Positions 346 through 61,454 of a stretch of DNA of 64,000 bases are shown here, in pieces. A model generated the notes under the pieces. That model was not told the DNA's origin. It saw nothing but the letters and a program-made list of their open reading frames with translations, and made no database searches. Each line of letters begins with the position of its first letter. Position 1 is the stretch's first letter. Source of the stretch: Bacteroidota bacterium (GTDB lineage: Bacteria > Bacteroidota > Bacteroidia > UKL13-3). Where the stretch lies: contig CANKQY010000004.1 in the NCBI GenBank assembly GCA_947485745.1, forward strand, positions 9,337 to 73,336, in the 5' to 3' direction. The position numbers were made by a program, and so were the translations under genes.

Positions 346-783
346 TGCTTACAAATTTAGTAGGTCTTCATTAGAAATTTTTTAAAATCAATTTTAATTC
401 ATCGTAAATATTTAAGAAAGTTTGATACTAGTCTTGTAATATAATAGAATCAGCTATTGTGCGACGATCAATGGCCACAGGATTTTTTGAAATATCTGTG
501 GCAATGGTTTTATCAAACTTTTTAAAATCGTGATTGAATTTAGCCAAAGTGTGCCTTAATTTAAATTAGTGTAATGATAAAAATTGTTAATTAATTTCTT
601 AAACAAAGCTAATCTCAATTTTTGGTTCAACAAATACTGAATGTCATGTATTCAAATGATTTTTATTGGTTCGAACCAAACCTAACTCATTAGAATTCAC
701 TTAAAAATATGTTAAATCCTAAGAATGCTTGAAGAGTGGTTTGATTTTGGTTATTTTCACAACCTGAAATAGAACAAATATTT

Positions 784-2217
784 ATGAAAAAATCAGCTTT
801 ATTTTTATTTATTATCCTGCTTTTGACAGGCAACACATTTGCTAAAGATGCCTATAATATTGCTATCACCATTAAAGGAGCGCCCAACAAAAAGTTTTAT
901 TTAGGCTATTATTTTGGCGACAAACAATATTTGAGAGATAGTGCTGTTACCGATAAAGCTGGTAAAATGGTTTACAAAGGCGATAAGCCTCTTGAGGGTG
1001 GAGTATACTTAGTTGCTACCGCAGAAAAATCTTTGTTGTTCGATTTTATTGTTACTGAACCCGAATTTAGTTTAGAAACAGATACAGCAGATGTTATCAT
1101 GAACATGAAGATCAAAGGTTCACCAGAAAACGATGTGTTTTTTGCTTACACGCGTTACACTTCTTCAATGGGTAGGCAAGCCAATGAATTAGATGCCCAG
1201 ATTAAAAAGGCCAAGGAAATCAATGATACTGCCACTTTAAGAATTACAGGTGAAAAATATAAAAAGATTTCACAAGACTTATTCGAATACAGAAAGGGTG
1301 TTTTAAAAGAACATCCTCAAATGTTATTGAGTAAGATTTTTAAAATGATGACAGATGTTGATGTGCCGGATGCTCCAAAGAATTCCAAAGGCGAAATCAT
1401 TGATTCAAATTTTCAGTTTAACTACTACTATAACCACTACTTTGATAATTTTGATTGGAGCGATGAACGCATTGTGAGAACACCTGTGTTCCACAACAAA
1501 TTTGAAGGATTTATGGTAAAATTAACGCCTCAAATTCCTGATAGCATTATTAAATCGGCAGATTTTGTTTTAACCAAAGCTGCTGCTGGTAAAGAGAACT
1601 TTAAATATTGCTTGTTCTGGATCACCAACCATTACGAAACTTCCACTTATATGGGAATGGACAAGGTTTTTGTGTACATGATAGATCAATATTATGCCAA
1701 AGGAAAAGCATTTTGGATTGATGAAACTTTGTTGTTTAAAATGAAAGACCGAGCAGATCAATTAAGGAATAATTTAATTGGTAACAGAGGTCCAAACTTA
1801 AATATGTTAGATACCAACAATGTGTATCATAGCCTTTACAATATCAAAGCAAAATATACCTTGCTCATATTCTGGGATGCCAATTGCGGTAAGTGTAAAG
1901 AAGAAATGCCAAAGCTAAGAACACTTTATGATGAACTAAACCCTAGAGGAGCAACAGGCTTAAAAATGTTTGATGTTTATGGCGTGAGCCTAACGCCAGA
2001 TTCTAAGGAGTGGCTAAAGTATTTACGCGAGAACAAATTGAAATGGTTAAATGTGTATGATCCAAATAATGAAACCAATTTCCGCAAATTATATGATATT
2101 TACAGCACGCCAGTTTTGTACTTGCTAGATGAAAACAAAAAGATTTTAGCCAAACGCATCAACGTGGAGCAACTAACAGAGTTTATCAAAGAAAGAGAAA
2201 AGAAGAACACTAAATAG
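784..2217 (+). CDS. Secreted thioredoxin-fold (TlpA/redoxin-like) protein with a large N-terminal domain
   Basis: Signal peptide MKKSALFLFIILLLTGNTFA. The C-terminal redoxin region carries a CxxC motif (LLIFWDANCGKCKEEMPKL). Confidence 0.7.
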   Translation: MKKSALFLFIILLLTGNTFAKDAYNIAITIKGAPNKKFYLGYYFGDKQYLRDSAVTDKAGKMVYKGDKPLEGGVYLVATAEKSLLFDFIVTEPEFSLETDTADVIMNMKIKGSPENDVFFAYTRYTSSMGRQANELDAQIKKAKEINDTATLRITGEKYKKISQDLFEYRKGVLKEHPQMLLSKIFKMMTDVDVPDAPKNSKGEIIDSNFQFNYYYNHYFDNFDWSDERIVRTPVFHNKFEGFMVKLTPQIPDSIIKSADFVLTKAAAGKENFKYCLFWITNHYETSTYMGMDKVFVYMIDQYYAKGKAFWIDETLLFKMKDRADQLRNNLIGNRGPNLNMLDTNNVYHSLYNIKAKYTLLIFWDANCGKCKEEMPKLRTLYDELNPRGATGLKMFDVYGVSLTPDSKEWLKYLRENKLKWLNVYDPNNETNFRKLYDIYSTPVLYLLDENKKILAKRINVEQLTEFIKEREKKNTK

Positions 2218-2243
2218 TTAATCCAATATTGTAATATCGCACT

Positions 2244-2960
2244 ATGAAAACCGATATCTTGGTATTTGCAGCACATCCTGATGATGCAGAATTGGCCTGT
2301 AGTGGAACAATCATGGCACATATTGCCCTTGGGTATAAAGTGGTGATTGTAGATTTAACCAGAGGTGAATTAGGCACCCGCGGTACTGCCGAAACCCGCG
2401 ATGAAGAAGCAAAAAAGGCCTCTGTAATTTTAGGGATACACAACAGAGAAAATTTAGGCTTTAGAGATGGATTCTTTGTAAAAGACGAGGTTCATTTGAT
2501 GAAGGTAATTGAGGTAATTAGAAAATACCAACCTGAAATTGTTTTGGCCAATGCCGAAAGCGATAGGCATATTGACCATGGTAGGGCTGCCGACTTGGTT
2601 CATGATGCGTGCTTTTTGTCTGGATTAAAGAAAATAAACACCTCCATTAATGGCAATACCCAACATGAATGGCGAACAAAAAAAGTATACCATTACATTC
2701 AGGATATGCTAACTAAGCCAGATATTGTTTTTGATATTACACCTTTTTTTGATCGGAAAATGGAATCAATTAAAGCTTTTGAAACACAATTTTACAATCC
2801 AAAATCAATAGAGCCAATAACGCCTATTGCCACAAAAGAATTTATCAAGCATATAGAAGGTAGGTGCCTTGAATATGGCAGGCAAATTGGCGTAAAATAT
2901 GGCGAAGGATTCACCGTTAAATCTAGCATCGGTTCGAGAAACTTATTGGATCAGATCTAA
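2244..2960 (+). CDS. bshB1: Bacillithiol biosynthesis deacetylase BshB1 (PIG-L/LmbE family)
   Basis: ILVFAAHPDDAELACSGTI, DLTRGELGTRGTAETRDEEA and ESDRHIDHGRAADLV follow the BshB1/LmbE zinc-deacetylase pattern along the full length. Confidence 0.75.
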   Translation: MKTDILVFAAHPDDAELACSGTIMAHIALGYKVVIVDLTRGELGTRGTAETRDEEAKKASVILGIHNRENLGFRDGFFVKDEVHLMKVIEVIRKYQPEIVLANAESDRHIDHGRAADLVHDACFLSGLKKINTSINGNTQHEWRTKKVYHYIQDMLTKPDIVFDITPFFDRKMESIKAFETQFYNPKSIEPITPIATKEFIKHIEGRCLEYGRQIGVKYGEGFTVKSSIGSRNLLDQI

Positions 2961-3853
2961 AAATTGGCAATATAAAATGCCTTTATTTTATTTAACCACA
3001 ATAAAGGTGGTATAGGAAATTTTAGCTGAACATTTTCTTGAAATGGATCCCCTAATTTCAATACTTGTTTATATAAAAAAGAAGAAGAAATACCCCATTT
3101 TTTAGCAAAGGTTTTTCGGCCATTATTTCTAACAACCCTACCTGTAGATTTGCATTTAAAATGATAAACCATACTACCACCAATTCCTTTAAAATCTCTT
3201 ACACCTAATTGCCAAATTTTCATTGCAAAATCTGGATCGGAATAAAATCCAGGAGAGTAAGCCACATCATAACCTTTGGCTAAATCCCAGATCTTTTTGT
3301 GCACAATACTTGGCGGCCAGCAAGCTCCAAACCAATCAGGTTTTGGTTTACTTTCAACCAATTTATTGAAGGCATCTTCATCAAAAGTATCATAGTCTCT
3401 ACCAAAATCATAGGGAGATAAAACAGCGGCATTTCCCGAATTTTCAAATTCAACCATAGTGCCCGAATAATAAAAATATTCATCGCCTTTGGCTTCAATT
3501 GCTTGCATCAAATAGTAATCCCAATCTTTGCCTACAAACATGTCGTCGTTTATATAGAGTATATAATTGGTGGTTACAAGCTTTGAAGATGAATTAAGTG
3601 CGTAACACACCCCAACATTTTCTTCAGAATAAGTATAGGCATAATCAGCAGCATCAACCCATTCTCTTGTGCCATCATTGCCTTCATTCACATGAATAAT
3701 AATTTGGTGTTTGAACCTACTATTTTGATGAATACTTTTGATACAAAGTTGAAGGTATGCTAGGTTATTCCAAGTTGGAATTAGAATACTGAATAGCGGG
3801 TATTCAACAAGCTTTTTTGCAGGATACGTTTTTATTTGAGGAGCGGAATTCAA
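2957..3853 (-). CDS. Family 2 glycosyltransferase
   Basis: N-terminal GT-A signature FSILIPTWNNLAYLQLCIKSI and a DxD-like YINDDMF. It overlaps the bshB1 stop by 4 nt in convergent orientation. Confidence 0.65.
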   Translation of the reverse strand: MNSAPQIKTYPAKKLVEYPLFSILIPTWNNLAYLQLCIKSIHQNSRFKHQIIIHVNEGNDGTREWVDAADYAYTYSEENVGVCYALNSSSKLVTTNYILYINDDMFVGKDWDYYLMQAIEAKGDEYFYYSGTMVEFENSGNAAVLSPYDFGRDYDTFDEDAFNKLVESKPKPDWFGACWPPSIVHKKIWDLAKGYDVAYSPGFYSDPDFAMKIWQLGVRDFKGIGGSMVYHFKCKSTGRVVRNNGRKTFAKKWGISSSFLYKQVLKLGDPFQENVQLKFPIPPLLWLNKIKAFYIANF

Positions 3854-6347: not shown

Positions 6348-8285
6348 ATGGAAAAAGTATTTCAAATTCACTTAGCCGGTGTTCTTTTCACTATTGAAGA
6401 ACAAGCCTACCTGCAACTTAAAACATACCTTGATAACATGCATGCGCATTTTAACAGCAATGCCGAAGTGGTTCAAGATATAGAAGGAAGAATGGCGGAA
6501 TTGTTTGGTCAAAAATTAGGTTCGAACCGAACAACGCTATTTACAAAAGATGTAGATGAAGTTACACAAACTTTGGGCAATATTAAACAAATGGTTGAAC
6601 ATGGTGAAACACATGCCAAGCCTCTTGAATCAAAAATTCAAAATCCTGCTCATCGCAGATTAAGAAGGAGCCCAAGCGATCAAAATTTAGGTGGTGTATG
6701 TTCTGGCATCGCGTCCTTTTTTGATGTTGACCCGGTAATGGTGCGTGTATTTTTTGTCATCATGATGGTATTATATGGCAGTGGCGTTTTACTATATTTG
6801 GTTTTATGGGTGATCCTACCCGAAGCCAAAGGTGAGGAAGCTGAATACATGAGATTGCAGCGTTTGAACAAAACCAAGCGTTTATTTAGAGATGCTGAAA
6901 GTCGCATGATTGGTGGTATTTCTGCAGGATTAGCTAGCTATTTTGGAATTGATAGAACGTGGATTCGTTTAGGATTTGTGGTTTCAGTTTTCCTTTTTGG
7001 AACTGGTTTTTGGCTATACATTATCCTGTGGATCATTGTTCCAAAGGCTGTATCAGCTAGCGATAAACTTTTAATGAGAGGTGAATCCGTTGACATTAGG
7101 AGTATTGAAAAAGAAGTAATGCAAAACCAAGGTTCAAATAAAATGAACAATTTTGCTCAGCATGGTAGTAACGTATTGGGCAAAATTATTAAAGGTGCCA
7201 TTAAGCTATTCGGCGGCCTATTTGCCTTAGTATTGTTTTCTCTTGTTATTGGAATAAGTGTAGCCATGATTGCGGTATTTTTTAATTTGGGTCAAACCAA
7301 CTTTATCAATGAATTGATTGCATTTACTGTTAAAGACAAAAGCATCATATATGCTGCTAAACTTGGTGTTTTATTAACCATTATCACCCCAATTATTGGC
7401 TTGTTATTAATTGTTATTAGGTCGCTTTTTAATGCAAAAATGATTAATAAAACTTGGGCTTTTACCATCCTTGGTTTCTTCTTAATAGGCGTTGCTTGTT
7501 TAACCTATTCGGGTATTAGTTTTGCGGCGAGTATAAGTAAAAAAGAATCTACACTTAGCGTAAATAAAATAGCTGCACCAGACACACTCTATTTAGAAGG
7601 TATTGAAATGCCTTTTAACAATGGAGAAAACAATGGTCTTGAAAATGATATGGAAATGGTGTTTCAAGACAAAGGAATATTGATGGGTAAAGACCAGTTT
7701 TATTTGGAGTTAGACAACATAAAAATAAAACAAAGTAAATCGGATAGTGTTACGTTAAAGGTGGTTAGAAGATCGAATGGTAGCAACCAATTGGATGCTG
7801 AAAGTAAAATAGATATGATCATTTATGCGCCGGAGATAATAGGTAATAAAATAATTATCCCTTCTTACTTTAGTTTAAATAAAGACAAGCAATTTAGCTG
7901 GCAAGAAGTTGAGGTTACCTTATATGTTCCTGAGAAAAAAATGATCAACATTGATATGAATGTAAAAGACATTTTGGATGATGAGAATATAAATGAGGCA
8001 GATGGTGATTTTTATCAATTTGTAAATGGAGAACTTATTTGTATGAATTGCTTGGCAGAAGACGACAAACTAGCAGATGAGGAAGAAAGCATGGAAGAGG
8101 AAGCCAATTTTGACCTAAATATGAAAGATGGCGACAATAATGTGAACATGGAAATTAAAATTTCCGACGATGGCAATGGTAATTCTATAAAAACTAAAAA
8201 AGTTATTAAAAAGGATGGCAAAGAAATTACCATTGAGGAAACCAAAAGTGGGAATACTACTATTAAAAAAAGAACAGAAAAATAA
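6348..8285 (+). CDS. PspC-domain membrane protein
   Basis: It has two PspC-like segments (LRRSPSDQNLGGVCSGIASFFDVDPVMVRVFFV and RDAESRMIGGISAGLASYFGIDRTWIRLGFV) and several TM helices. It starts 2 nt after the PadR stop, the usual PadR-PspC pairing. Confidence 0.75.
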   Translation: MEKVFQIHLAGVLFTIEEQAYLQLKTYLDNMHAHFNSNAEVVQDIEGRMAELFGQKLGSNRTTLFTKDVDEVTQTLGNIKQMVEHGETHAKPLESKIQNPAHRRLRRSPSDQNLGGVCSGIASFFDVDPVMVRVFFVIMMVLYGSGVLLYLVLWVILPEAKGEEAEYMRLQRLNKTKRLFRDAESRMIGGISAGLASYFGIDRTWIRLGFVVSVFLFGTGFWLYIILWIIVPKAVSASDKLLMRGESVDIRSIEKEVMQNQGSNKMNNFAQHGSNVLGKIIKGAIKLFGGLFALVLFSLVIGISVAMIAVFFNLGQTNFINELIAFTVKDKSIIYAAKLGVLLTIITPIIGLLLIVIRSLFNAKMINKTWAFTILGFFLIGVACLTYSGISFAASISKKESTLSVNKIAAPDTLYLEGIEMPFNNGENNGLENDMEMVFQDKGILMGKDQFYLELDNIKIKQSKSDSVTLKVVRRSNGSNQLDAESKIDMIIYAPEIIGNKIIIPSYFSLNKDKQFSWQEVEVTLYVPEKKMINIDMNVKDILDDENINEADGDFYQFVNGELICMNCLAEDDKLADEEESMEEEANFDLNMKDGDNNVNMEIKISDDGNGNSIKTKKVIKKDGKEITIEETKSGNTTIKKRTEK

Positions 8286-8488: not shown

Positions 8489-9415
8489 ATGGAGCAAATG
8501 GAAAGCCTGATCAATGATATCAAAGCTAAATTACAGGCCAATGGACAAGATCCTGAAAATTATTTAAGAGGGTTGAAGCATAACAGAGCCATCAATTATT
8601 GGGAATATATACAAGTAGATACGCTGCTATCCCTACAAAATCCCAGAACTGATTTTAAAGATGAAACTATTTTTATCATGTACCATCAAATCACAGAATT
8701 GGTATTGAAATTAATAAGGCATGAGTTAGATCAACTGTGTTTAACAGAAATGGAACCAAGGTTATTTGTTGAAAAATTATACCGCATGGTTAGGTATACA
8801 GATTTATTGAGCAGTTCATTTAGCATTATGAACCAAGGCATGAGTTACGAAGATTACAACCAATTTAGGTTGAGCCTCTCCCCTGCCAGCGGCTTTCAAT
8901 CGGCTCAATTCAGGTTTATTGAACTAATGTGTACCGATGTTGATTTATTGATACACGAACATTTTAGAAAGAACCTAACAACAGAAAATACCCTTGCCGA
9001 AAAATTTGATTTTGTTTATTGGCAAGAAGCTGGTTATAACAGAGAGGCTAAAAAGAAAAATAAAACCCTCACAGATTTTGAAACTAAATACCTAGGAAGT
9101 TTTATTCAAACTGCCGAAAACATGAAGGATAAAAACCTGAATCAAAAGTACAAAACCATGCTTAAAAGTTTGGATCAAACCGGACAAGAAAATTTAATTG
9201 CGGCATTGAGAGCCTTTGATAAAAAATACAACATAGATTGGCCAATGGTGCACCTAGAAACCGCCAGAACCTACTTAAAATCAAAAGGCGAAGTTAAAAC
9301 CGCAACAGGCGGTAGCCATTGGGAAAAATACCTCCATCCACAATTCCAAAGAAGAATTTACTTCCCAGAATTATGGTCGAAGGAAGAAATGGAGAATTGG
9401 GGGAAAGAAGATTAA
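8489..9415 (+). CDS. kynA: Tryptophan 2,3-dioxygenase
   Basis: YWEYIQVDTLLSLQNPRTDFKDETIFIMYHQITELVLKLIRHE and the SGFQSAQFRFIE segment match the bacterial TDO family. Confidence 0.7.
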   Translation: MEQMESLINDIKAKLQANGQDPENYLRGLKHNRAINYWEYIQVDTLLSLQNPRTDFKDETIFIMYHQITELVLKLIRHELDQLCLTEMEPRLFVEKLYRMVRYTDLLSSSFSIMNQGMSYEDYNQFRLSLSPASGFQSAQFRFIELMCTDVDLLIHEHFRKNLTTENTLAEKFDFVYWQEAGYNREAKKKNKTLTDFETKYLGSFIQTAENMKDKNLNQKYKTMLKSLDQTGQENLIAALRAFDKKYNIDWPMVHLETARTYLKSKGEVKTATGGSHWEKYLHPQFQRRIYFPELWSKEEMENWGKED

Positions 9416-9423: not shown

Positions 9424-10005
9424 CTACTTACCACTTTCATTAAATACAAATTTCTTCGGTTTGAACCGAATATTTACGCCAAAAGTTAGGAGATTTTTAT
9501 TTGCAATTTGTAAGCCATTCATGTATTGATACAAAGGCAAATCATACATTCCATAAAAGGTAACCGACTTTATTGAATAGGTAACTTGAGGCACAAAGGA
9601 TATTTTAGAGCCACCGGTAGATTCTGGCTCCACAGAAATTCCTTGGGCAATAAAATCTACATTTGGACTTAACAGCATTTTCCCAAAATGCTCATACCTT
9701 AATTGCCCGGTTAATACTAATTTCTTAAAATAGGTTTTGCTCGCAAACAAACCGATTCCAAGAAAATCGCCAAACTTCTCCCCCAAGGCGTTATAACCTT
9801 TGTGCATATAAGTGCCACTTATGAAAACCTTTAACTTTGCTTTTTTAAACTCCTGTAAAGCAAAACCATAAAAAATAAAATCATTTGATCCTGTAGTGGT
9901 TTGAACTGTGGGTGGCGAAATAATTTGAATGGTATTACCGTTGCTAGGATTAATATACACAGGGGTTGAATCGTGGGCGTTTCCCAATAGAATTTTAATG
10001 CCCAA
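9424..10005 (-). CDS. Outer-membrane beta-barrel protein, apparently 5'-truncated (possible pseudogene)
   Basis: Alternating beta-strand pattern ending ...LLTFGVNIRFKPKKF. The track start is a TTG. The frame stays open to 10098 (reading ...RHFELTLGLGIKILLGN) with no signal peptide and no earlier start codon, and it runs into the 3' end of the upstream gene. Confidence 0.4.
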   Translation of the reverse strand: MGIKILLGNAHDSTPVYINPSNGNTIQIISPPTVQTTTGSNDFIFYGFALQEFKKAKLKVFISGTYMHKGYNALGEKFGDFLGIGLFASKTYFKKLVLTGQLRYEHFGKMLLSPNVDFIAQGISVEPESTGGSKISFVPQVTYSIKSVTFYGMYDLPLYQYMNGLQIANKNLLTFGVNIRFKPKKFVFNESGK

Positions 10006-10073: not shown

Positions 10074-10865
10074 TTAAATCGCCAAATCCTTTACATGGCT
10101 AATTTTTGTAATAGAAACCTGACTATTTACCAATACTTTCACAAAATAATATCCTTGGCTCAATTGCGATATATTCAGGCTTATAACATCACCACCACTC
10201 TTAATTTCTTGTCCATTAAGTTGCATCACATTTACACCCAATATATCAAAAAGTTGAATACAAACAATTGTTGATTTTTTTAGGTTCAAACCAATATTTA
10301 GTTGGTTGCTTAAAGGATTAGGGTAAACAGTAATATCGGAAGGTGATAACTTTTCTTCTATACCGTTTGCGGCTAATGCACTTGAAATTGCATTACGAAG
10401 ATTGACTGCATTTAAACCATTGTCTTGCATAAATAATACAGAATGGGAAGCACCTGCTATCATAACAATTTTTGGCATTCCACTGCCCCCAAAATCAGAT
10501 TGTTTTACGCTTGTATTTGAAATAATAGGAACTCCCGAAATGGCATATTGATTTGCCCAACTGCTCAAAGAGGTACAATTCGTTCCTCCATCATCATCTG
10601 TTAAATAAAACAAAACCCTTCCAGGATTTGAAGTAGCAAAACTATTCACCACATCAATAGCACTTTTTGTAGGAGATACGCATGATCCACATGGGTGAAC
10701 CATAGACATAACAACTATTTTTCCGGCATCTAACTCAGTATATAAATGGCGATTAACACCACCACAATCTAACACATTAAAATCTACGGCAGTTTGCGAC
10801 CAACCTGAGCTTATAGAAATTAAAAGGAAAAATTGGAAGGTAAAAAAGTGATACATGTTTTTCAT
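10074..10865 (-). CDS. T9SS-sorted secreted protein with a thioredoxin-like CxxC region
   Basis: Signal peptide; VVMSMVHPCGSCVSPTKS (CxxC); C-terminal T9SS sorting domain (ITVYPNPLSNQLNIGLNL...GYYFVKVLV). Confidence 0.65.
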   Translation of the reverse strand: MKNMYHFFTFQFFLLISISSGWSQTAVDFNVLDCGGVNRHLYTELDAGKIVVMSMVHPCGSCVSPTKSAIDVVNSFATSNPGRVLFYLTDDDGGTNCTSLSSWANQYAISGVPIISNTSVKQSDFGGSGMPKIVMIAGASHSVLFMQDNGLNAVNLRNAISSALAANGIEEKLSPSDITVYPNPLSNQLNIGLNLKKSTIVCIQLFDILGVNVMQLNGQEIKSGGDVISLNISQLSQGYYFVKVLVNSQVSITKISHVKDLAI

Positions 10866-11203: not shown

Positions 11204-12718
11204 CTATTTTAAACTTTTCTTTTGATTACTTTGAAATTCTTGAAGGATTGTATTAATTCTTATTAACTTATTTTTGATAATAGGCTTGGCAATAGAACAA
11301 TGACCAAAAATTAAACCTTGCTCAGTGGAGTTATTAGTAAACGACTTATTAAAGGAATGAACACTAATATTATTTTTACTCAATAAACTTACAATTTCTT
11401 TGTCGACGATACTAGATTTAATCATAACCAAGGATTGAAGACTTAATGTGTCGCTATGAATGAGATTAAACCCAAATCCTTTTAAAATTTGATTGAATTG
11501 CTCCTCAAAAAACAACTTTCTCTCTTTGGTTATTGTTATTAAATTATCGAGGTGTACATGCAGTACTTTTTTTTCAATAAATTGGTTCAAAACGTATTGA
11601 ATTGAAGGAGAAACAAATCGATGGGAATGTTTCACCATTAACTCAAATGGTAGCCTTAAGTTATGTGGAACAATAATATAGCCTATTCTCAACGATGGGT
11701 GCAGGATGCGATTAAAGGTACCAAGGTAAATGGTCTTTTGCCGTTGGTCGAGGCTAAACAAGGAAGGTAGCTTATTGTCCCAATTATTGAGCTCATGTTC
11801 ATAATCATTTTCAATTATGTAGCTTTGGTTCTCCTCAGCATACTGCAATAAATCGAGCCTTCTATCCAAAGGCATTTTAACACCCATCGGATAATGACAA
11901 GAAGGGGTTACATGAATCAATTTAGATGCTAGTTTTGATTGTCGCATAAAATCAACACTTATCCCCTTTTTATCAATTGGAACTCCCAAAATATTTGCCA
12001 TTAATCCTTTAAAAACTGCATGAACATTAGGAAATGTTGGATTTTCAAGAATTACATTATCACGGGGATTTAACAAGATACTACTCAAAATAAACAAGGA
12101 TTGCATAGATCCCGAAACAATAAAAACTTGGCTTGGTTCACAATTAATATTTCTAGTGAGATTGAGATAATTTGAAATGTTTAATTTCAATTTTTCTAAA
12201 CCTGATGATGGCGAATACGATAAATTTGAAAACTCAACCTCCTTCCAATACATATTGGTTAAATTCTTCCATTGTGAAATTGGAAATATATCTAATGGAG
12301 GCAAACCCGGACTAAACGCTAAATTTTCGGCACTGTTCGAAACATTGAAATTACCTAAATCCAAAAACGATTTTCCAATCTCAGATAACTGTTGGTAATC
12401 AATTTCATTGCTTTGAGGAACTATAATTGGTCTAGGTGCAATTGGCTTTAATTGGTAACCAGAATTTCTTTTAGAAATAAGCAAACCATCTAAAACTAGA
12501 ATGTCATAGGCTTTTATAACCGTGCTTCTTGAAATGCCTAAAGCCTGAGCCAATGTTCTTGTTGGAGGCAATGTATAATTATCTGGAATCTCTGTTTTGA
12601 TAATCATTTTGTACAACATCTTGTAAACCTTGATATACAACTTTTCGCCCTTTGAGAGCTTTGAATTTACAACATTCTTGTTGTAGTCGTCCACAATTTT
12701 TTTTAGCAAAACCGACAT
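11204..12718 (-). CDS. MocR/GabR-type regulator (GntR winged helix fused to a PLP aminotransferase-like domain)
   Basis: N-terminal GntR helix-turn-helix (LPPTRTLAQALGISRSTVIKAYDILVLDGLL) followed by about 380 aa of fold-type I aminotransferase-like sequence. It is divergent from the 12825-22349 operon. Confidence 0.8.
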   Translation of the reverse strand: MSVLLKKIVDDYNKNVVNSKLSKGEKLYIKVYKMLYKMIIKTEIPDNYTLPPTRTLAQALGISRSTVIKAYDILVLDGLLISKRNSGYQLKPIAPRPIIVPQSNEIDYQQLSEIGKSFLDLGNFNVSNSAENLAFSPGLPPLDIFPISQWKNLTNMYWKEVEFSNLSYSPSSGLEKLKLNISNYLNLTRNINCEPSQVFIVSGSMQSLFILSSILLNPRDNVILENPTFPNVHAVFKGLMANILGVPIDKKGISVDFMRQSKLASKLIHVTPSCHYPMGVKMPLDRRLDLLQYAEENQSYIIENDYEHELNNWDNKLPSLFSLDQRQKTIYLGTFNRILHPSLRIGYIIVPHNLRLPFELMVKHSHRFVSPSIQYVLNQFIEKKVLHVHLDNLITITKERKLFFEEQFNQILKGFGFNLIHSDTLSLQSLVMIKSSIVDKEIVSLLSKNNISVHSFNKSFTNNSTEQGLIFGHCSIAKPIIKNKLIRINTILQEFQSNQKKSLK

Positions 12719-22349: not shown

Positions 22350-22393
22350 GCAAATATTTTTCGGTTTGAACCAATCGGCCGTGGATGAAGCAT

Positions 22394-43023: not shown

Positions 43024-43633
43024 AATCTAAAATTGCTAAACTGGCATCACAAAAATCATATTCATACAATTGGTTGCTTGCAATAATAATGGTACGCTTT
43101 TTTAGTTGGGTTTGAACCAAATTTCTATACCATGCAATACCTTGTTCATCTAAATTCGAGCAAGGTTCATCTAAAAGCAACAAGGGAGTATTGGCATATA
43201 TAGCCATCACCAATTTGAGTCTTTGTTTCATTCCCGAAGAAAAGTGCTTGATGAACTTATTTTCTTGACCGCTTAAACCACAAGCTTGTATCATTTCTGC
43301 TAAGGTAATGTCATCCTGCTTTGGAATAATGCCAAAATGAAATTGAAGCATTTCCAATAAGTTAAAATCATCTAATAAATCTAGGTAAGGTGCAGCAATT
43401 GAAATTTTTCCAACCAAATTTTCTTCTGCTAAAATTTTACCCGCTAGCTCATATTGAATCAAACCTTTTGAATAAGTTTGGTAATTAAATATGATTTGAA
43501 TTAACGTAGATTTTCCCGAGCCATTATTGCCTACTAAAGCATAAGAACCGTTTGATTGGAAATCAAAATTTACCCCTTTAAAAACCCACTGTCGGTTAAA
43601 CTTTTTACCTATATCCTGTAGTGAGATTTTCAA
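43013..43633 (-). CDS. ABC transporter ATP-binding protein (short, stand-alone)
   Basis: Walker A GNNGSGKST, signature FSSGMKQRL and Walker B LLLLDEP. Confidence 0.8.
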   Translation of the reverse strand: MKISLQDIGKKFNRQWVFKGVNFDFQSNGSYALVGNNGSGKSTLIQIIFNYQTYSKGLIQYELAGKILAEENLVGKISIAAPYLDLLDDFNLLEMLQFHFGIIPKQDDITLAEMIQACGLSGQENKFIKHFSSGMKQRLKLVMAIYANTPLLLLDEPCSNLDEQGIAWYRNLVQTQLKKRTIIIASNQLYEYDFCDASLAILDFKH

Positions 43634-48201: not shown

Positions 48202-48289
48202 AATTAATGAACAAAATAAAACGTTACTTCGCAAAGATAAGATTTGGAGGCATACTTTTTGCTTCTTGACAATAACTAGAAAAAACAAA

Positions 48290-49840
48290 ATGAACGCAAC
48301 TATTCTGTGGGCTGATGATGAAATTGATTTATTAAAGCCACATATTTTATTTTTAACCAACAAAGGATATCAGGTTGACAAGGTAACCAATGGCATTGAT
48401 GCCGTTGAAAAGGTAAAAGAAAATAATTATGATGTAATTTTTTTAGACGAGAATATGCCAGGCATTAGTGGCATTGAAACCTTGGCACAAATTAAGGTGA
48501 TAAGACCAGATGTGCCCGTGGTAATGATTACCAAAAGTGAAGAAGAGCATATAATGGAAGATGCAATTGGCAACCAAATTGCTGATTATCTCATTAAACC
48601 AGTAAATAGCAACCAAATTCTACTTTCATTAAAAAGATTATTAGATGGAAAGCAGCTAGTAACCGAAAAAACCGCCCAAAATTACCAACAAGAATTCCGC
48701 CAATTGAGCATGGATTTATCTGATGTAGATGACTTTAATGGCTGGGTAAAAATGTACAAGAAGCTAGTTTATTGGGAGCTAGAATTGGCGAAAAGTGGTG
48801 AAACTGGCATGGATGAAATTTTGGCCATGCAAAAAAGAGATGCCAATAATGGTTGGGGCAAATTTGTGAAAGACAATTTTATCAATTTCCTCAAAAAGCC
48901 TGATGCCAATACACCAGTAATGAGTCATACCTTAATCAATAAAAAATTAGTTCCCCTTTTAAAAGATGAGGTTCCTACTTTTATGATATTGATTGATAAT
49001 TTTAGGTACGACCAGTGGAAAATGGTTCAGAGCCAATTGAATGAATTATTCAATGTAGTGTTGGATGATACCTACATGACCATTTTGCCAACTACCACGC
49101 ACTATGCAAGGAATAGTATTTTTGCAGGTATGTTGCCAAGCGAAATTGAAAAACTATACCCTAATTTATGGGTAAATGAAGAAGATGAGGAAGGAAAAAA
49201 TATTCATGAAGAAGATTTATTGGGCCGACAATTACAGCGCTCAGGCATCATGGATAAATTCTCTTACACCAAAATTACCAACTTAAATGCTGGTAAAAAC
49301 TTAGTTGAAAATATCCCTAACCTTTGGCATAATAAACTCAATGTTATTGTATATAATTTTGTAGATATGCTAAGTCATGCTCGAACCGAAATGAACGTAA
49401 TGAAAGAGCTTGCCGAAGATGAGGCCGCTTATAGGAGTATTACTAACAGTTGGTTTGAACATTCACCACTTTTTGAAGCTATTAAGAAGATAGCCAGTAA
49501 AAAAGCAAGGGTAGTAATTACAACAGACCATGGCTCTATAAGAGTTGGCAATCCTGTAAAGATTGTAGGTGATAGAGCAACAAGCACAAACCTGCGTTAC
49601 AAGCAAGGTAGAAACTTAAATTATAATGAAAAGGAACTTTTTTCAATCAAGAATCCTTCAGATGCATTTTTGCCTAAACAAAATATGAGCACCAGTTATG
49701 TATTTGCCTTGGGTGAAGATTTTATGGCTTACCCAAACAACTATAACTACCATGTAAAAATGTACACAGATTCATTCCAACATGGCGGCATTAGCCTAGA
49801 AGAAATGATAGTACCATTCATCGTGCTGGAAACCAAATAA
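48290..49840 (+). CDS. porX: PorX-type T9SS response regulator (CheY-like receiver fused to a PglZ/alkaline-phosphatase-like domain)
   Basis: Receiver ILWADDEIDLLKPHILFL...VIFLDENMPGISG...DYLIKP, followed by about 380 aa of PglZ-like sequence (TTDHGS, HGGISLEEMIVPF). The start is taken at ATG 48290. Confidence 0.75.
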   Translation: MNATILWADDEIDLLKPHILFLTNKGYQVDKVTNGIDAVEKVKENNYDVIFLDENMPGISGIETLAQIKVIRPDVPVVMITKSEEEHIMEDAIGNQIADYLIKPVNSNQILLSLKRLLDGKQLVTEKTAQNYQQEFRQLSMDLSDVDDFNGWVKMYKKLVYWELELAKSGETGMDEILAMQKRDANNGWGKFVKDNFINFLKKPDANTPVMSHTLINKKLVPLLKDEVPTFMILIDNFRYDQWKMVQSQLNELFNVVLDDTYMTILPTTTHYARNSIFAGMLPSEIEKLYPNLWVNEEDEEGKNIHEEDLLGRQLQRSGIMDKFSYTKITNLNAGKNLVENIPNLWHNKLNVIVYNFVDMLSHARTEMNVMKELAEDEAAYRSITNSWFEHSPLFEAIKKIASKKARVVITTDHGSIRVGNPVKIVGDRATSTNLRYKQGRNLNYNEKELFSIKNPSDAFLPKQNMSTSYVFALGEDFMAYPNNYNYHVKMYTDSFQHGGISLEEMIVPFIVLETK

Positions 49841-53523: not shown

Positions 53524-53600
53524 ATTTAGATTCTAATCCATTTATATTCTGGGGGGCCTTATTTTTTAACGGTTTGAACCAACCTTGAGTAAAGTGATTT

Positions 53601-54589: not shown

Positions 54590-55705
54590 ATGAATAATAC
54601 GATTGAAACTACGGGTAATGACTTTTTGCCTTTAAACGGAACTGATTATATTGAACTATACGTGGGAAATGCCAAGCAGGCGGCCCATTTCTATAAAACA
54701 GCTTTTGGTTTTCAAAGTTTGGCTTATGCCGGACCAGAGACAGGGGTGCGTGATAGGGCTAGTTACGTTTTGGTTCAAAACAAAATGAGATTAATGCTTA
54801 CCACCCCTGTACGCTCCGATTCTGCGATTGCGGAGCACCACAAAAAACATGGCGATGGCGTGAAGGTTTTGGCACTAATGGTAGATGATGCCTACAAAGC
54901 GCATGAAGAAACAACCAAACGTGGCGGAATTTCTTGCATGGAACCAAAAACACTTACTGATGAAAATGGCGAAGTACGCATGAGTGGGATCAAAACGTAT
55001 GGTGAAGTGGAACACATTTTTATTGAACGCAACAACTACAATGGCGTGTTTATGCCTGGTTTTATTAAATGGGAAAGTAATTATAATCCTGAACCAACAG
55101 GTTTATTATATGTAGACCATTGCGTAGGAAATGTTGATTGGAACCAAATGAACCCTTGGGTGAGCTTCTATGAAAATGTAATGGGTTTTAAAAACATCCT
55201 TTCATTTGATGACAACGATATTTCCACTGAATACTCTGCATTGATGAGCAAGGTTATGAGCAATGGAAATGGTTTCGTAAAATTTCCAATTAACGAACCA
55301 GCCGAAGGAAAAAGAAAATCACAAGTAGAAGAATACCTAGAATTTTATGAAGGCGAAGGCACGCAACACATTGCTATTGCTACCTTAGACATTGTTTCTA
55401 CTGTTAAACAATTAATGGCCAGAGGAGTTGAATTTTTGAAAGTGCCTAACAGTTATTACGATGATTTGTTAGATAGAGTTGGTCCTATAGAAGAAGACAT
55501 TGAGCCTTTAAAAGAATTGGGTATTTTGGTTGATAGAGACAATGAAGGATACTTGCTTCAATTGTTTACCAAACCAGTAGAAGACAGGCCAACCATGTTT
55601 TATGAAATTATTCAACGCAAAGGGGCAAAATCTTTTGGCAAAGGAAATTTCAAAGCCCTATTCGAAGCCATAGAACGCGAACAAGCTAATCGAGGTAATT
55701 TATAA
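54590..55705 (+). CDS. hppD: 4-hydroxyphenylpyruvate dioxygenase
   Basis: YIELYVGNAKQAAHFY, VDHCVGNV, PINEPAEGKRKSQVEEYLEFYEGEGTQHIA, LLQLFT, FYEIIQR, GFGKGNFKALFEAIEREQ. Confidence 0.9.
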   Translation: MNNTIETTGNDFLPLNGTDYIELYVGNAKQAAHFYKTAFGFQSLAYAGPETGVRDRASYVLVQNKMRLMLTTPVRSDSAIAEHHKKHGDGVKVLALMVDDAYKAHEETTKRGGISCMEPKTLTDENGEVRMSGIKTYGEVEHIFIERNNYNGVFMPGFIKWESNYNPEPTGLLYVDHCVGNVDWNQMNPWVSFYENVMGFKNILSFDDNDISTEYSALMSKVMSNGNGFVKFPINEPAEGKRKSQVEEYLEFYEGEGTQHIAIATLDIVSTVKQLMARGVEFLKVPNSYYDDLLDRVGPIEEDIEPLKELGILVDRDNEGYLLQLFTKPVEDRPTMFYEIIQRKGAKSFGKGNFKALFEAIEREQANRGNL

Positions 55706-56203: not shown

Positions 56204-58603
56204 TTAAATAATCGTTTTGAGTTCCTTGATTCGTTTAAGTATACTTAAGAAGAAACCTATAATCATGATAATGGTGCCGGCCCAAACGAAGTTAATCATT
56301 GGGAATACGATTGCCTTCATGATAATGAAATCGCCAGAGGTGTCTTTTTCGGAAGTGACGATGGTAATTTTCTTGGTTTCGGGATTAACCTCTACAAACC
56401 TAAATTTTAACTTGGCCTCTTCCACCAAAGCTTCATAGCTTGTTGCTGAATTATCTTTAACGCCATACAATGGCATGGCATCGTATACTTTATCTAAGGT
56501 ATATACTTTTAACTCTGCACCCAATAGCACTTGAAAATTCTTCATATCAATGTTATTAGCATCTGTATTGGAATTAATGCCTTGCAAAATTGCGTAACCA
56601 TTATTGGTAAATATTGTATCGCCAGGTGCTACCATATGCGTTTTTTCATTGATATACTTCGACTCTGCTTTACCAGATGGCACCGAACTTACATAGGTAA
56701 ACACATCATGTCCCCAATAGTGCTTGGTATCTGGATTTGCCACCAAACCAAACTTGGGATTTATTTGTCCGTTAGGATATAAATTAAACTCATAATCAAC
56801 CTCACCATCCTTATTTAATTTCTTATAATTCACTTGGTAATAAGTGTTCACCCATTGCACCGAATCTTTCACATAAGTGATAATATAATCTCCCATTTTA
56901 TTAGGCTTACCACGTTCTAGGTATATATTCTCTACATTCTCTTTGTTGTTAAATTCTGGGTTCAAAGCGGTTCCACTTTCATTGATGGAGATTACTTGCT
57001 TATTGGCAGAAGAAACTAAAACACCAATTAACAAAATACCAAATCCTATATGTGCAACACTCGCTCCCGCCAATTTAATTTTACCTTTTAAGAATGGGAT
57101 CAACAAAATTAAATTGGTGGTAATACCATAAACACCTGCAAACAATAAACCTAGGTAAAAATAATTTTTAAGACCAAATGCATAATAAAGAACTGCCGTA
57201 ATAACCAATGAAATTAGTGCGTACAAGCCCATCTTTTTTAAAGCTTCTTTGGTATTCTTCTTATATTTTAACAAATTAGCAACTGCAGTTAATACACCAA
57301 TAATAATAGCCATTGGCATTTGCCATTTGTTATAATGTCCAATAATATCTGCAGGTGGAGCTAGGTTGGCCGAAAACAATTTATTGAAAACAGGAATTGA
57401 CGTTGTAAGTATTACTTGAAAGGCCGAAATGACCAATACCAAACTTCCGATAAACATCCAAAATTCGCGGGTATAAATTTCCTCATCCTTGGCAGAGCGA
57501 GGCATTAATTTCCAGCGCATGGCTATCAATACTATGGCCAATATTACAAACACTAATAGGAAAACCAATAACTGTCCGCTCATACCTAAATCTGTGAAAG
57601 AATGAACCGAAGAATTGCCTAAGATACCAGAGCGAGTTAGGAATGTGGCATATAATACCAATAAAAAAGTTGCAATAATTAACCCCAGAGCAACAATATA
57701 AGAATTGCCTGTAGATTTGTGAATGATCATTACATGAACACCTGCAATTAATATGAGCCATGGAACCAAAGATGCATTCTCTACAGGATCCCATGCCCAG
57801 TATCCGCCAAAGCTCAAGCTTTCATAAGCCCAAAATCCACCCATTATTATTCCAGCTCCCAAAACCATTACACTAATTAAAGCCCAGGGTAAAGCTGGTT
57901 TTAACCATTCTTTAAAATCTTTGCGCCATAAAGAGGCAATGGCATAGGCAAATGGCACTACCGTTGTGGCAAAGCCAAAGAACAAAGTTGGCGGGTGAAT
58001 CACCATCCAATAGTTTTGCAATAATGGGTTCAAACCGTTACCGTCTTTTACTTTGCTTAAATAATCTGCTGTTTTAAAAATAGGTGCATCGGCCATCACA
58101 TTTCTTAATAACTCAAACGGACTACTACCTAATTTATAAGAGAATATTTTTACACCCAAAAGCATGCTTGTTAGGGCAATTTGAGAAAGCATTACAACTG
58201 CCATTACTGGGTTCAACCAATTCTTTGCAGTGCGCAATAAAATTTGCCCTATAAACATTTGCCAAAAAATCCAGAGTAGAAAGCTTCCCTCCTGACCCTC
58301 CCAGAAACAAGAAATCATAAAGTGTACTGGCAAATCTGTACTGCTGTGTTGCCAGGCATAATGATACTCAAAATAATGGCTATAAATTATTTTAAAGAGG
58401 GAGGCTATAATGGTTAAAACCGCCAAACTGTGCAAATGAAAAGAGTATTTAGCAATATTTGTCCAGCTTTGATCCAATGGATTGCGCTCGGCAAAAAAGT
58501 AACTCAAACAAGCCAATATAGAGGAAATAAAGGAAACCACAACTGCGGTGTGACCCAAATTCCCCCAAAATAAATGTTCACCAATAAATGTAACAGAACT
58601 CAT
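56204..58603 (-). CDS. ccmF: CcmF-type cytochrome c maturation heme lyase (large CcsA/CcmF-family membrane protein)
   Basis: About 15 TM helices and the Trp-rich heme-handling motif FGGYWAWDPVENASLVPWL. It is the last gene of the ccmC-D-E-F cluster. Confidence 0.75.
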   Translation of the reverse strand: MSSVTFIGEHLFWGNLGHTAVVVSFISSILACLSYFFAERNPLDQSWTNIAKYSFHLHSLAVLTIIASLFKIIYSHYFEYHYAWQHSSTDLPVHFMISCFWEGQEGSFLLWIFWQMFIGQILLRTAKNWLNPVMAVVMLSQIALTSMLLGVKIFSYKLGSSPFELLRNVMADAPIFKTADYLSKVKDGNGLNPLLQNYWMVIHPPTLFFGFATTVVPFAYAIASLWRKDFKEWLKPALPWALISVMVLGAGIIMGGFWAYESLSFGGYWAWDPVENASLVPWLILIAGVHVMIIHKSTGNSYIVALGLIIATFLLVLYATFLTRSGILGNSSVHSFTDLGMSGQLLVFLLVFVILAIVLIAMRWKLMPRSAKDEEIYTREFWMFIGSLVLVISAFQVILTTSIPVFNKLFSANLAPPADIIGHYNKWQMPMAIIIGVLTAVANLLKYKKNTKEALKKMGLYALISLVITAVLYYAFGLKNYFYLGLLFAGVYGITTNLILLIPFLKGKIKLAGASVAHIGFGILLIGVLVSSANKQVISINESGTALNPEFNNKENVENIYLERGKPNKMGDYIITYVKDSVQWVNTYYQVNYKKLNKDGEVDYEFNLYPNGQINPKFGLVANPDTKHYWGHDVFTYVSSVPSGKAESKYINEKTHMVAPGDTIFTNNGYAILQGINSNTDANNIDMKNFQVLLGAELKVYTLDKVYDAMPLYGVKDNSATSYEALVEEAKLKFRFVEVNPETKKITIVTSEKDTSGDFIIMKAIVFPMINFVWAGTIIMIIGFFLSILKRIKELKTII

Positions 58604-58663: not shown

Positions 58664-59047
58664 TCAGGTTTTCACCTCAGTTTCATTATATTTACTCGGA
58701 CATTTAAGCAAGATTTTTGATGCTTCAAAATGATTGCCTTCCATGCTACCAACTATCACAATTTTTTCTGACCTTTCAAAATCTGCAGGCTGAGGATTGT
58801 GGTAAACAACTTTGCTTTCCTTTCCCTTTTCGTCAACCATATAAAAGGAAAAATAATTGGCATCTTTTTGCGGATCATAATACTTTTCTTTTTCTCGGTT
58901 CAAAACGCCAACTACATGGTATTCTTTACCTGGATGATCCGAGGCTACCTCAAAATTTTCATAGGTACTTGCATCGCCGTACATGCTTGCAATTGCACCA
59001 ATGGCTACGGCAATTAATAATAGTGCGAGGATACTTGTCTTTTTCAT
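58664..59047 (-). CDS. ccmE: Cytochrome c maturation heme chaperone CcmE, CxxxY variant
   Basis: N-terminal anchor, an OB-fold-like body (YHVVGVL...VVYHNPQPADFERSEKIVIVG) and a C-terminal LLKCPSKY in place of the canonical HxxxY heme-binding motif. Confidence 0.7.
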   Translation of the reverse strand: MKKTSILALLLIAVAIGAIASMYGDASTYENFEVASDHPGKEYHVVGVLNREKEKYYDPQKDANYFSFYMVDEKGKESKVVYHNPQPADFERSEKIVIVGSMEGNHFEASKILLKCPSKYNETEVKT

Positions 59048-59051
59048 GCTA

Positions 59052-59222: not shown

Positions 59223-59223
59223 G

Positions 59224-60272: not shown

Positions 60273-61043
60273 ATGAAATACTTTTCTTTTTTAGTACTAA
60301 TTATTTTTACTTCATTTAATGCATTCTCTCAACGAAAACCTGAGCCAAAACCAGCTTTGCCAGCGGCAGCGCCAAAGCCAAAAGGTCCGAGCCCCTATGT
60401 AATGAAAAAAGATTATGATAGCAGTATCACAAAGTTGAGTAACCAAATGAAGGGTATTCAACAATCCATCAATTCTGTAAAAGGTGGTATTAATAGTAAG
60501 GATGCAGAGTTGAAATACATGAATGAAAAAATGAAACAGGTTGAAGAAGTCCTTAATTCAACCAATTTTAAGATTGCACTCACCTCCGACTCTTTAAACA
60601 AAACCCAACTTTCTTTAGAAGAAATCCATAAAAACAATGAGCTAAGATTTAGCGCTCAAGAAGCAAAAATTATTAAGGCTGAAAGCTACATTTTCCTTTT
60701 ATGGGCTTTTGTTTTAATAGCTATTATTTCTGCTGGTTTGATTTGGTTTCTGTTAAACAAAAAAATTAAACAATTAGAAAATAAAATCAATAAGAGCTTT
60801 GAAGAAAATAGAAGCCTCATTCACGAAAATCAAGAGGGCTTAAATAAGCAAGTGAAACAATTGGAATCTCAATTAAATACTGAAACTAGAAACAACAAGC
60901 ACTTTGCAGAAAGACTCAACAATGCAGTAAAAGAGGATATCAATATTATCCAAAATGAATCAAAAAATATGGCTTCAACCATTGCGGTAATCAGCGCAGA
61001 AATAAATGATTTGCATGATAGGATCAAACCGAATAATGCATAA
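60273..61043 (+). CDS. Secreted/membrane coiled-coil protein of unknown function
   Basis: Signal peptide, a Pro/Ala/Lys-rich linker (KPEPKPALPAAAPKPKGPSP), coiled-coil segments and one internal TM helix (IFLLWAFVLIAIISAGLIWFLL). Confidence 0.5.
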   Translation: MKYFSFLVLIIFTSFNAFSQRKPEPKPALPAAAPKPKGPSPYVMKKDYDSSITKLSNQMKGIQQSINSVKGGINSKDAELKYMNEKMKQVEEVLNSTNFKIALTSDSLNKTQLSLEEIHKNNELRFSAQEAKIIKAESYIFLLWAFVLIAIISAGLIWFLLNKKIKQLENKINKSFEENRSLIHENQEGLNKQVKQLESQLNTETRNNKHFAERLNNAVKEDINIIQNESKNMASTIAVISAEINDLHDRIKPNNA

Positions 61044-61052
61044 AAATGCTTA

Positions 61053-61088
61053 AAAAAAGCCGCTTACCAATTTGGCAAGCGGCTTTTT
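61053..61088. terminator. Bidirectional intrinsic terminator
   Basis: AAAAA-GCCGCTTACCA-ATT-TGGCAAGCGGC-TTTTT: an 11-bp stem with one mismatch between convergent genes. Confidence 0.8.
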
Positions 61089-61109
61089 AAAGTCGTAATT
61101 AAATCTAAA

Positions 61110-61454
61110 TTATTTTACTGATTTTACAATTGCTTCGAAAGTTTCTGGATGGTTCATGGCCATATCGGCTAAAACCTTGCGGTTTAAACCTAAACCTTTT
61201 TTGTGAACTAGGTTCATAAATTGGCTGTAGCTATATCCATGTAAACGTGATCCAGCATTGATACGCATGATCCAAAGGCTGCGAAAATTGCGCTTTTTGG
61301 TTTTACGATCCCTATAGGCATAACCTAGTCCTTTGTCGATGGTATGTTTTGCTATAGTTAATACATTTTTTCTTTTACCCCAGTAACCTTTGGCTAACTT
61401 GAGTAATTTTTTTCTGCGAGCCCTACTCGCTACGGAATTGACTGAACGTGGCAT
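61110..61454 (-). CDS. rplT: 50S ribosomal protein L20
   Basis: [30 protein letters not shown]...[21 protein letters not shown] is canonical L20. Confidence 0.95.

Follow-up and report, generated by a model that had tools for sequence, protein, structure and literature searches.

Sequence-biased DNA uptake that leaves a footprint in the genome has been documented in two proteobacterial families only, through the Haemophilus and Neisseria signals, and it has influenced how bacterial 'sex', the barriers between species and molecular drive are understood. The DNA uptake sequences (DUS) of Neisseria meningitidis occupy about 1% of its genome; DUS form dialects with a conserved core, in which CTG is the functional core and position +10 a conserved A, two one-base variants can coexist in one genome, and TGA constrains the reading frames they can occupy (Frye et al., 2013; PMC3630211). 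In Haemophilus influenzae there are 1,471 perfect 9-bp cores of the uptake signal sequence (USS) in 1.83 Mb, or 1 per 1.2 kb, 65% of the USS lie in open reading frames (ORFs), and the consensus is a 30-bp three-part motif; uptake sequences share enriched motif-encoded tripeptides, originate by point mutation from imperfect copies, and are absent from genes that lack homologues (Findlay and Redfield, 2009; PMC2817400). In cyanobacteria, HIP1 is a conserved word that is plentiful in coding DNA and that two methylases recognise (abstract of bioRxiv 10.64898/2026.06.24.733823). Within the Bacteroidota, natural transformation of Riemerella proceeds via ComEC, DprA, ComF and phylum-specific outer-membrane proteins, with no pilus homologues detected (PMC8459023). 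Here we describe CGGTTTGAACCAA, an asymmetric 13-base word that is strongly over-represented in 64 kb of contig CANKQY010000004.1 of a Bacteroidota bacterium (the window, the whole stretch of DNA analysed) and in its relatives. By analogy with the uptake signals above, and with a probability of roughly 40%, the word may serve a family-level clade of uncultured freshwater Bacteroidota as a 'self' tag resembling DNA uptake signals.

The signal had first been described as a palindromic family, GGTTYRAACC, with GGTTTGAACC as its main form. All 13 matches to the family lie where the original prediction placed them, compared with 0.41 expected and a maximum of 3 in 100 dinucleotide-preserving shuffles of the window. 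The 10-mer GGTTTGAACC occurs in 10 copies, five per strand, against a dinucleotide-shuffle expectation of 0.17 and Markov expectations of 0.28 (order 3) and 0.56 (order 5), and is preceded by C in 6 of 10 copies and followed by AA in 7 of 10, as had been counted. Inside genes, eight copies compare with 0.32 expected when synonymous codons are permuted with every protein sequence kept; none of 1000 such shuffles reached eight. The observed-to-expected ratio is thus about 25 under the codon-aware model, not near 1, and the over-representation stands. The shorter TTTGAACCAA had been reported at 31550, 36627, 44117, 44315 and 60234, all of which are correct; that list was incomplete, since five minus-strand copies (11582, 15503, 30658, 31024 and 54770) had been missed and the total is 17. 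The related palindromes TTGGTTCGAACCAA at 666-679 and GGTTCTAGAACC at 21010-21021 are present as described.

The palindromic description itself had to be replaced. In an unbiased k-mer ranking (k=10-12) this motif family comes top. When single substitutions are counted and sub-words compared for enrichment, TTTGAACC/TGAACCAA emerges as the strongest core (32 copies apiece where about 7 would be expected), extended by (C)GG on the 5' side and AA on the 3' side. The best description is the asymmetric 13-mer CGGTTTGAACCAA with core TGAACC, and variation is accepted at three positions. Its commonest variant, the GATCC form GGTTTGATCC (6 copies against 0.1-0.6 expected), had been overlooked; GATCC, GGTCTG and GGTTCG forms of the word coexist, and the palindromic GGTTCGAACC accounts for 2 sites. 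At up to two mismatches, CGGTTTGAACCAA gives 35 matches, equal to 34 sites, where shuffles predict 1.94, and the same count over the loci of 80 other Bacteroidota species (1.45 Mb) gives 2.1 per 64 kb, so that the enrichment is about 17-fold relative to real genomes of the phylum. The density in this 64-kb sample is 1 per 1.9 kb at up to two mismatches and 1 per 6.4 kb for the exact 10-mer, and the 34 sites occupy about 0.7% of the sequence; for DNA uptake sequences a genome-wide density near one per kb is typical. As with DNA uptake sequences, a short word thus lies far above both composition- and codon-aware expectation. The sites and related forms in the window are as follows.

666-679, unstranded: TTGGTTCGAACCAA, palindromic form; intergenic, upstream of a thioredoxin-like gene.
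6517-6529, minus: CGGTTCGAACCTA, 2 mismatches, holding the palindromic 10-mer at 6519-6528; PspC-domain gene.
7287-7299, minus: TGGTTTGACCCAA, near-site; coding, antisense.
9170-9182, minus: CGGTTTGATCCAA, GATCC variant; antisense in a Trp-dioxygenase gene.
9457-9469, plus: CGGTTTGAACCGA, exact 10-mer at 9458; antisense, reads R-F-K-P.
10281-10293, minus: TGGTTTGAACCTA, exact 10-mer at 10283; sense G-L-N-L in a type IX secretion system (T9SS) cargo gene.
11582-11594, minus: CGTTTTGAACCAA; sense in a GntR/aminotransferase gene.
19882-19894, minus: CGCTTGGAACCAA, weak near-site in which the core TGAACC is not intact.
20077-20086, minus: GGTTTGATCC, variant 10-mer; antisense in an M14 peptidase gene.
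21010-21021: GGTTCTAGAACC, palindrome.
21405-21417, minus: CGGTTTGAACCAA, perfect 13-mer; antisense L-V-Q-T.
22362-22374, plus: CGGTTTGAACCAA, perfect; intergenic between convergent genes, 14 nt after a stop and outside a terminator-like hairpin at 22405-22418.
26057-26069, minus: AGGTTTGAACCAA in alaS; sense G-L-N-Q; GGGGTAAACCAA in the 86% relative.
27514-27526, minus: CGGTCTGAACCAA in alaS; the form dominant in relative L214.
28217-28229, minus: CGGTATGAACCAA in alaS; conserved in L202 and L212.
30658-30670, minus: CTCTTTGAACCAA; antisense in an ECF sigma-factor gene.
31547-31559, plus: CTATTTGAACCAA; intergenic, 25 nt after a stop codon.
31670-31682, plus: TGGTTTGAACCAA in a Cupin_5 gene; sense G-L-N-Q; conserved in L214 (66% relative).
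31890-31902, minus: CGGTTTGATCCAA, variant in the Cupin_5 gene; the L214 equivalent is CGGTCTGATCCAA.
35416-35428, minus: CGGTTTGAACCAA, perfect copy in glgA, read in sense as G-L-N-Q; L202, L212 and L285 have the identical sequence, L218 has CGGGCTGAACCAA.
35971-35980, plus: GGTTTGATCC, variant 10-mer; antisense in glgA.
37318-37330, minus: GGGTTTGATCCAA, variant; sense in an esterase gene.
38678-38690, minus: CTGTTTGATCCAA; intergenic.
41323-41335, plus: CGATTTGATCCAA; sense, coding.
43108-43120, plus: GGGTTTGAACCAA, exact 10-mer at 43109; antisense L-V-Q-T in an ABC ATPase gene.
44114-44126, plus: CAGTTTGAACCAA; lpxA, antisense; conserved in both L202 and L212.
44312-44324, plus: ACGTTTGAACCAA; lpxA, antisense; conserved in both L202 and L212.
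45213-45225, minus: CGGCTTGATCCAA; sense in lpxC/fabZ; the L212 equivalent is CGGTTTGATCCAA.
53570-53582, plus: CGGTTTGAACCAA, perfect; intergenic between convergent genes, 48 nt after a stop.
54770-54782, minus: TGTTTTGAACCAA; antisense in a glyoxalase/HPPD-like gene.
56957-56969, minus: CGCTTTGAACCCA; sense in a ccmF-like gene.
58025-58037, minus: CGGTTTGAACCCA, exact 10-mer at 58027; sense G-L-N-P in a ccmF-like gene.
58410-58422, minus: CGGTTTTAACCAT, weak near-site.
58546-58558, plus: CGGTGTGACCCAA, weak near-site.
58895-58907, minus: CGTTTTGAACCGA; sense in ccmE.
61019-61031, minus: CGGTTTGATCCTA, variant form; antisense, lying 13 nt ahead of a stop.
61180-61192, plus: CGGTTTAAACCTA, with GGTTTAAACC at 61181; antisense in rplT.

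The placement of the 34 sites (14 sense in genes, 15 antisense in genes and 5 intergenic) shows no preference for orientation. The exact word divides 5:5 and the 8-mer core 14 plus to 18 minus, in agreement with the absence of strand bias first reported, and the gaps between sites fit random placement (coefficient of variation 1.13). About 85% of the sites are within genes, while non-coding DNA is enriched roughly twofold (15% of sites vs 8% of sequence). The sites occupy five of the six reading frames, and the unused one contains TGA. The encoded peptides are GLN(Q), (L)VQT, (R)FKP and GSN, as described before; the five sense-strand exact copies are all in one frame (GGT TTG AAC), three of them encoding G-L-N-Q. 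The excess over a codon-preserving shuffle and the use of five frames support selection or drive on the DNA rather than the protein, as the original prediction had proposed. Occurrence in both orientations, without polarity and in coding and non-coding DNA alike, is also the pattern of DNA uptake sequences. The flanks of the sites are unrelated and near background composition, showing no more than a slight excess of T on the 5' side and of A on the 3' side, so the sites represent an independent word and not fragments of one dispersed repeat family. Repetitive extragenic palindromes or miniature inverted-repeat transposable elements likewise fail to describe sites with such flanks, most of which are intragenic.

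Several conventional roles for such sites were considered and rejected. The matches at 668, 22363 and 53571 are intergenic by the ORF map, as stated earlier, the latter two belonging to sites 14 and 48 nt after stops; on inspection, the sites at 22362 and 53570 are not part of terminator hairpins, and a terminator role for the post-stop intergenic sites was rejected because they lie outside such hairpins. Likeness to the tRNA T-arm or B-box (GGTTCGAAnCC) was set aside, as the window contains neither tRNA genes nor Rfam matches and the length of the loop is not the same. Bacteroidota promoter elements (TTTG or TAnnTTTG) were rejected by inspection, since the preceding bases misfit and most sites are intragenic.

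The word is not private to this contig. Identical or near-identical proteins to those of the window were found only in metagenome assemblies and metagenome-assembled genomes, mostly from JGI and ENA and some with lake-style sample codes, and the best AlaRS match among GTDB species representatives has just 69% identity, so the source species is missing from that set. T9SS sorting domains encoded in the window assign the host to Bacteroidota. None of the 80 other Bacteroidota loci, which were taken from a GTDB AlaRS scan and served as the empirical null, was enriched. Contigs of relatives, ranked by GlgA identity, compare with the window as follows.

L202, GlgA 93%: enriched, same word.
L212, GlgA 86%: enriched, same word.
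L214, GlgA 66%: one-base dialects, CGGTCTGAACCAA three times, CGGTTCGAACCAA twice and CGGTTTGAACC twice.
L218 (Bacteroidetes bacterium B1(2017)), GlgA 66%: weaker, with 8 near and 0 exact matches; TGAACC hexamer 3-fold enriched.
L282, GlgA 63%: background level.
L283, GlgA 61%: enriched, 7 exact 10-mers in 21 kb.
L284, GlgA 60%: about background, 3 near-matches.
L285, GlgA 59%: enriched, 4 exact and 11 near.

The comparison with related genomes that had been proposed therefore bears the word out in relatives down to about 59-66% GlgA identity. The motif thus looks to belong to a whole family, its dialects keeping TGAACC as their core, and is shared across a clade as DNA uptake sequences are: relatives at 93, 86, 66, 61 and 59% are positive, and L282, L284 and the 80 species are negative. 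L282 and L284 form one group in a tree of GlgA and GlgC, which is compatible with a single origin of the motif in the remaining clade. Motif-plus members comprise GCA_945875195.1, GCA_027487835.1 and the contigs of 87.7, 158 and 375 kb from which L202, L214 and L285 were taken; GCA_039931675.1 and GCA_963853145.1 are motif-minus sisters. The enrichment recurs in independent assemblies, and an unlinked 12-kb contig (L135), assigned to Bacteroidota by its gene with a T9SS domain, carries 9 sites (1 per 1.3 kb) along with a T9SS protein and serine hydroxymethyltransferase (SHMT). Its source metagenome also gave a contig of the 93% relative, and its sites indicate that the word is not local to the window. 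Of the matches listed in a metagenome 14-mer scan, most are due to chance, and about a dozen low-GC contigs carry extra copies.

Comparison of orthologues at the codon level shows how the sites evolve. They are gained and lost in place by point substitutions, some of which change amino acids; for example, the window has GGTTTGAACCAA in alaS where L212 has GGGGTAAACCAA, and a CGGTCTGAACCAA site in glgA of L214 faces unrelated sequence in the window. Other sites are old, both cupin sites being common to L214 and the glgA site to L285. All 7 strong coding sites are fully identical in the 93% relative, where phase-matched controls average 92% identity (P=0.0008), and this excess conservation fades at larger distances. 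Upkeep in the short term combined with turnover in the long term suggests that what is under pressure is how many matches there are, or how good they are, and not where they lie.

The word has also left an imprint on the proteome. Per 10,000 residues, the tripeptide GLN occurs 6.5 times in motif-plus and 3.0 times in motif-minus proteomes, LNQ 5.8 and 2.3 times, and VQT 2.4 and 1.1 times; GSN and FEP roughly double as well. Of the reversed controls, QNL and TQV show no rise, and NLG rises (4.1 in motif-plus vs 2.5 in motif-minus) less than GLN does. Furthermore, an 8.5-kb island in L285 (1-8500; 28-34% GC vs 37-43%), probably acquired horizontally, has 0 sites compared with 11 in the adjoining 12.9 kb. 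It consists of about 16 small hypothetical ORFs on one strand with a Fic gene at its end. Depletion in acquired DNA and a proteome imprint are both features of uptake sequences, the depletion here being that of one island with small numbers.

Like the DUS of Neisseriaceae (ATGCCGTCTGAA, whose receptor ComP is a type IV minor pilin), the word is short and asymmetric, in the range of a 10- to 13-mer at about 0.7-1% of the genome. It also lies in both orientations and in coding and non-coding DNA, is restricted in its placement by TGA in one frame, and is conserved at the family level with one-base dialects round a core, two of which can coexist in one genome. It differs from DUS in phylum and sequence, in a lower exact-word density and in having almost no inverted terminator pairs; moreover, uptake specificity is known for DUS and is a prediction for the word described here. 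The absence of detectable pilus homologues from the one studied Bacteroidota transformation system also sets it apart from a signal with a pilin receptor (PMC8459023). Similarly, the word resembles the USS of Pasteurellaceae (AAGTGCGGT core; Hin and Apl types) in being mostly intragenic, in its reading-frame bias and roughly twofold tripeptide enrichment, in its absence from genes without homologues, and in arising by point mutation from imperfect copies. Unlike the USS, the exact word is found at 1 per 6.4 kb instead of 1 per 1.2 kb, and in place of a 30-bp three-part consensus there is just a weak T-rich 5' and A-rich 3' context.

A further likeness concerns the dialects TCTGAACC and CCTGAACCAA, seen at sites of L214 and L218 and at 27514-27526 of the window, which share GTCTGAA/CCTGAA with Neisseria DUS dialects; the L214 dialect has GTCTGAA in common with the DUS itself. 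This likeness is probably a coincidence, because the receptor classes should differ.

Since the published signature of uptake sequences is matched, an uptake-signal-like tag is favoured. The original prediction had listed several functions without choosing; among them, an uptake signal fits every genomic property tested. The DNA-level, orientation-free, clade-wide pattern is observed, and biased uptake would be the step that we infer from it. A surface or periplasmic component of natural transformation would prefer double-stranded DNA carrying the word, and better-matching fragments from conspecifics would be taken up and recombined more often. Such a bias could act as a molecular drive in which near-matches become matches via ordinary point mutation, wherever protein function tolerates the conversion, in any frame and in either orientation, while recently acquired DNA would remain word-free. 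It is possible, at clearly less than even odds, that CGGTTTGAACCAA represents the first DNA uptake sequence outside Proteobacteria, a family-wide, dialect-forming self-recognition tag for natural transformation in abundant but uncultured lake Bacteroidota. Its receptor would then be something other than a type IV minor pilin, such as a Bacteroidota-specific outer-membrane component. In kind the signal is akin to USS and DUS, though the phylum is new for such words and a reader of another type is probable.

Some observations weigh against an uptake signal. Sequence-specific uptake is unreported in Bacteroidota, and a literature search found no report of this word or of an uptake-like motif in the phylum, the exact words matching only unrelated primers or miRNA. 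Among the genes of the 64-kb window no competence gene was recognised, and the sample comprises this window and about 150 kb of relatives' DNA instead of a whole genome. The exact 10-mer is also sparser than the canonical USS, as noted above. Inverted pairs that form terminators are frequent among Neisseria DUS but almost missing here: a single one was seen, CGGTTTGAACCAAATTTAGGTTCAAACTG at 6425-6453 of contig L091, which could form a hairpin like the terminator pairs of DUS and USS. Any other strong, orientation-free selection or drive at the DNA level would give the same genomic properties.

The alternative that survives best, although unlikely, is an array of binding sites for an abundant DNA-binding protein, for instance a nucleoid-organising one, or for another self-marking factor outside uptake, with selection keeping dispersed copies. 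The quasi-palindromic core (GGTT..AACC) and the fully palindromic copies at 666-679, in L212 and in L218 would suit a dimeric binder, and the dispersal of the word, its independence of orientation, its conservation across the clade and the excess conservation of its sites over matched controls also agree with such an array. However, the consensus is asymmetric both in its centre (TG) and in its flanks (C...AA). Known chromosome-organising arrays (parS, matS, Noc and SlmA sites) consist of palindromes with tens of copies in a genome, unlike the density of one per 2-6 kb here. The free turnover of positions implies that no particular location matters, and no candidate protein was identified.

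Rather improbable is an iterated sequence of the HIP1 type, generated or maintained by a DNA methyltransferase and the repair bias that goes with it, or by some other mutational or repair process that depends on sequence context, and playing no direct part in uptake. HIP1 (GCGATCGC), likewise a conserved word of coding DNA and one that methylases recognise, resembles the present word in being clade-wide, iterated many times inside and outside genes and more conserved than its flanks, and in having a function perhaps linked to horizontal transfer. Moreover, the family includes TTCGAA and GATC forms (GGTTCGAACC, GGTTTGATCC), and a single deamination separates the dominant TG/CA form from the palindrome GGTTCGAACC. 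HIP1 is, though, a perfect palindrome with known methylases, whereas the enriched form here is asymmetric in centre and flanks, the palindrome being confined to 2 sites, and no link to a methylase was found; among the window genes (64 kb) no methyltransferase gene was recognised. Vsr-type repair converts T:G to C:G, yet the C form that it would favour is scarcer than the T form by a factor of about five (2 vs 10 sites), and the enrichment of 17- to 100-fold exceeds the modest enrichment attributed to very-short-patch repair. Word-bearing viral contigs speak weakly in the same direction: an IMG/VR 15-mer scan gave 62 viral matches, none motif-rich, which is uninformative for the phages of this host, as these are unknown.

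A polar signal for recombination or segregation, either Chi for AddAB/RecBCD or a guide for FtsK of the KOPS/AIMS type, is very unlikely. The exact-word density of about one per 5-6 kb resembles that of E. coli Chi, and sites with up to two mismatches number 11 plus vs 22 minus in the window. In contrast, the balanced exact words and 8-mer cores already given, and the interspersion of plus and minus sites along the whole window, speak against a replication-oriented skew. Over 7 contigs and 83 sites the log-likelihood ratio is -3.3 for a 75% skew, which makes it about 27-fold less likely than none, and -6.8 for 80%, while a weak skew of 60-67% is compatible with these data. The word is not G-rich, and its 13-base specificity far exceeds that of known Chi (5-8 nt), so that among the functions first listed Chi is disfavoured on both skew and length. 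Finally, that the signal is not real but reflects chance, codon or dipeptide usage or pieces of a dispersed repeat or mobile element, as the single frame of the five sense copies and their three G-L-N-Q sites might suggest, can be dismissed in view of the codon shuffle (0/1000), the count at up to two mismatches, the 80-species control, the antisense and intergenic copies, the unrelated flanks, the lack of Rfam or tRNA hits, and the reproduction of the enrichment in independent assemblies and an unlinked contig.

The genes of the window are ordinary housekeeping ones, including alaS, glgA/glgC, lpxA-D, ccm genes and thrS-infC-rpmI-rplT, together with a T9SS cargo gene and a PorX-like gene. A secreted-looking protein with a lamin-tail domain is encoded at 14783-15742; this domain is also present in bacterial extracellular nucleases, and no link to the motif was shown. 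The ORF calls of an HD-domain gene (46945-48363, minus) and the PglZ response regulator that is PorX-like (48191-49840, plus) overlap by about 170 nt, the TTG start at 48191 probably having been called too far upstream. The thrS gene, of 641 aa in relatives, is truncated by the window end (about 62557-64000), and six contigs of relatives from independent assemblies (L286-L291) all end about 1.4-1.8 kb past thrS, which suggests a repeat such as an rRNA operon or an IS element just outside the window.

Other repeated sequences and a mobile gene were seen in the same DNA. The 8-mer ACGGACTA has 5 copies against 0.44 expected, four of them (13382, 14104, 15730 and 16775) within 3.4 kb on both strands and one at 58117-58124, and may be a second, local word. 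The 21-kb locus of L214 has another over-represented word, the palindrome ATTGGCCAAT, which is counted six times over both strands at 3 sites, often in the form TATTGGCCAAT, and was not seen in the window. L285 carries at 20700-20850 an intergenic, G+C-rich 18-bp tandem repeat, GCGTCGACCCTGTCGCCT, in about 7-8 copies within a genome of 36% GC. A DUF1016/YhcG gene (PDDEXK nuclease-like) lies at 15118-16155 of L202 and 11300-11953 of L288, in different insertion places and absent from the window, and behaves like a mobile gene.

Even if it is not an uptake signal, the word is a strongly driven, clade-specific genome tag without explanation, and it could help in binning this lineage and assigning hosts in lake metagenomes. 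If the uptake reading is true, uptake signals would evolve repeatedly, including in a phylum whose one studied transformation system showed no pilus homologues, and the comparison of motif-plus with motif-minus sister genomes would offer a handle on a new class of DNA receptor. It would also mean that recombination within the lineage is frequent in these abundant, not yet culturable freshwater bacteria.

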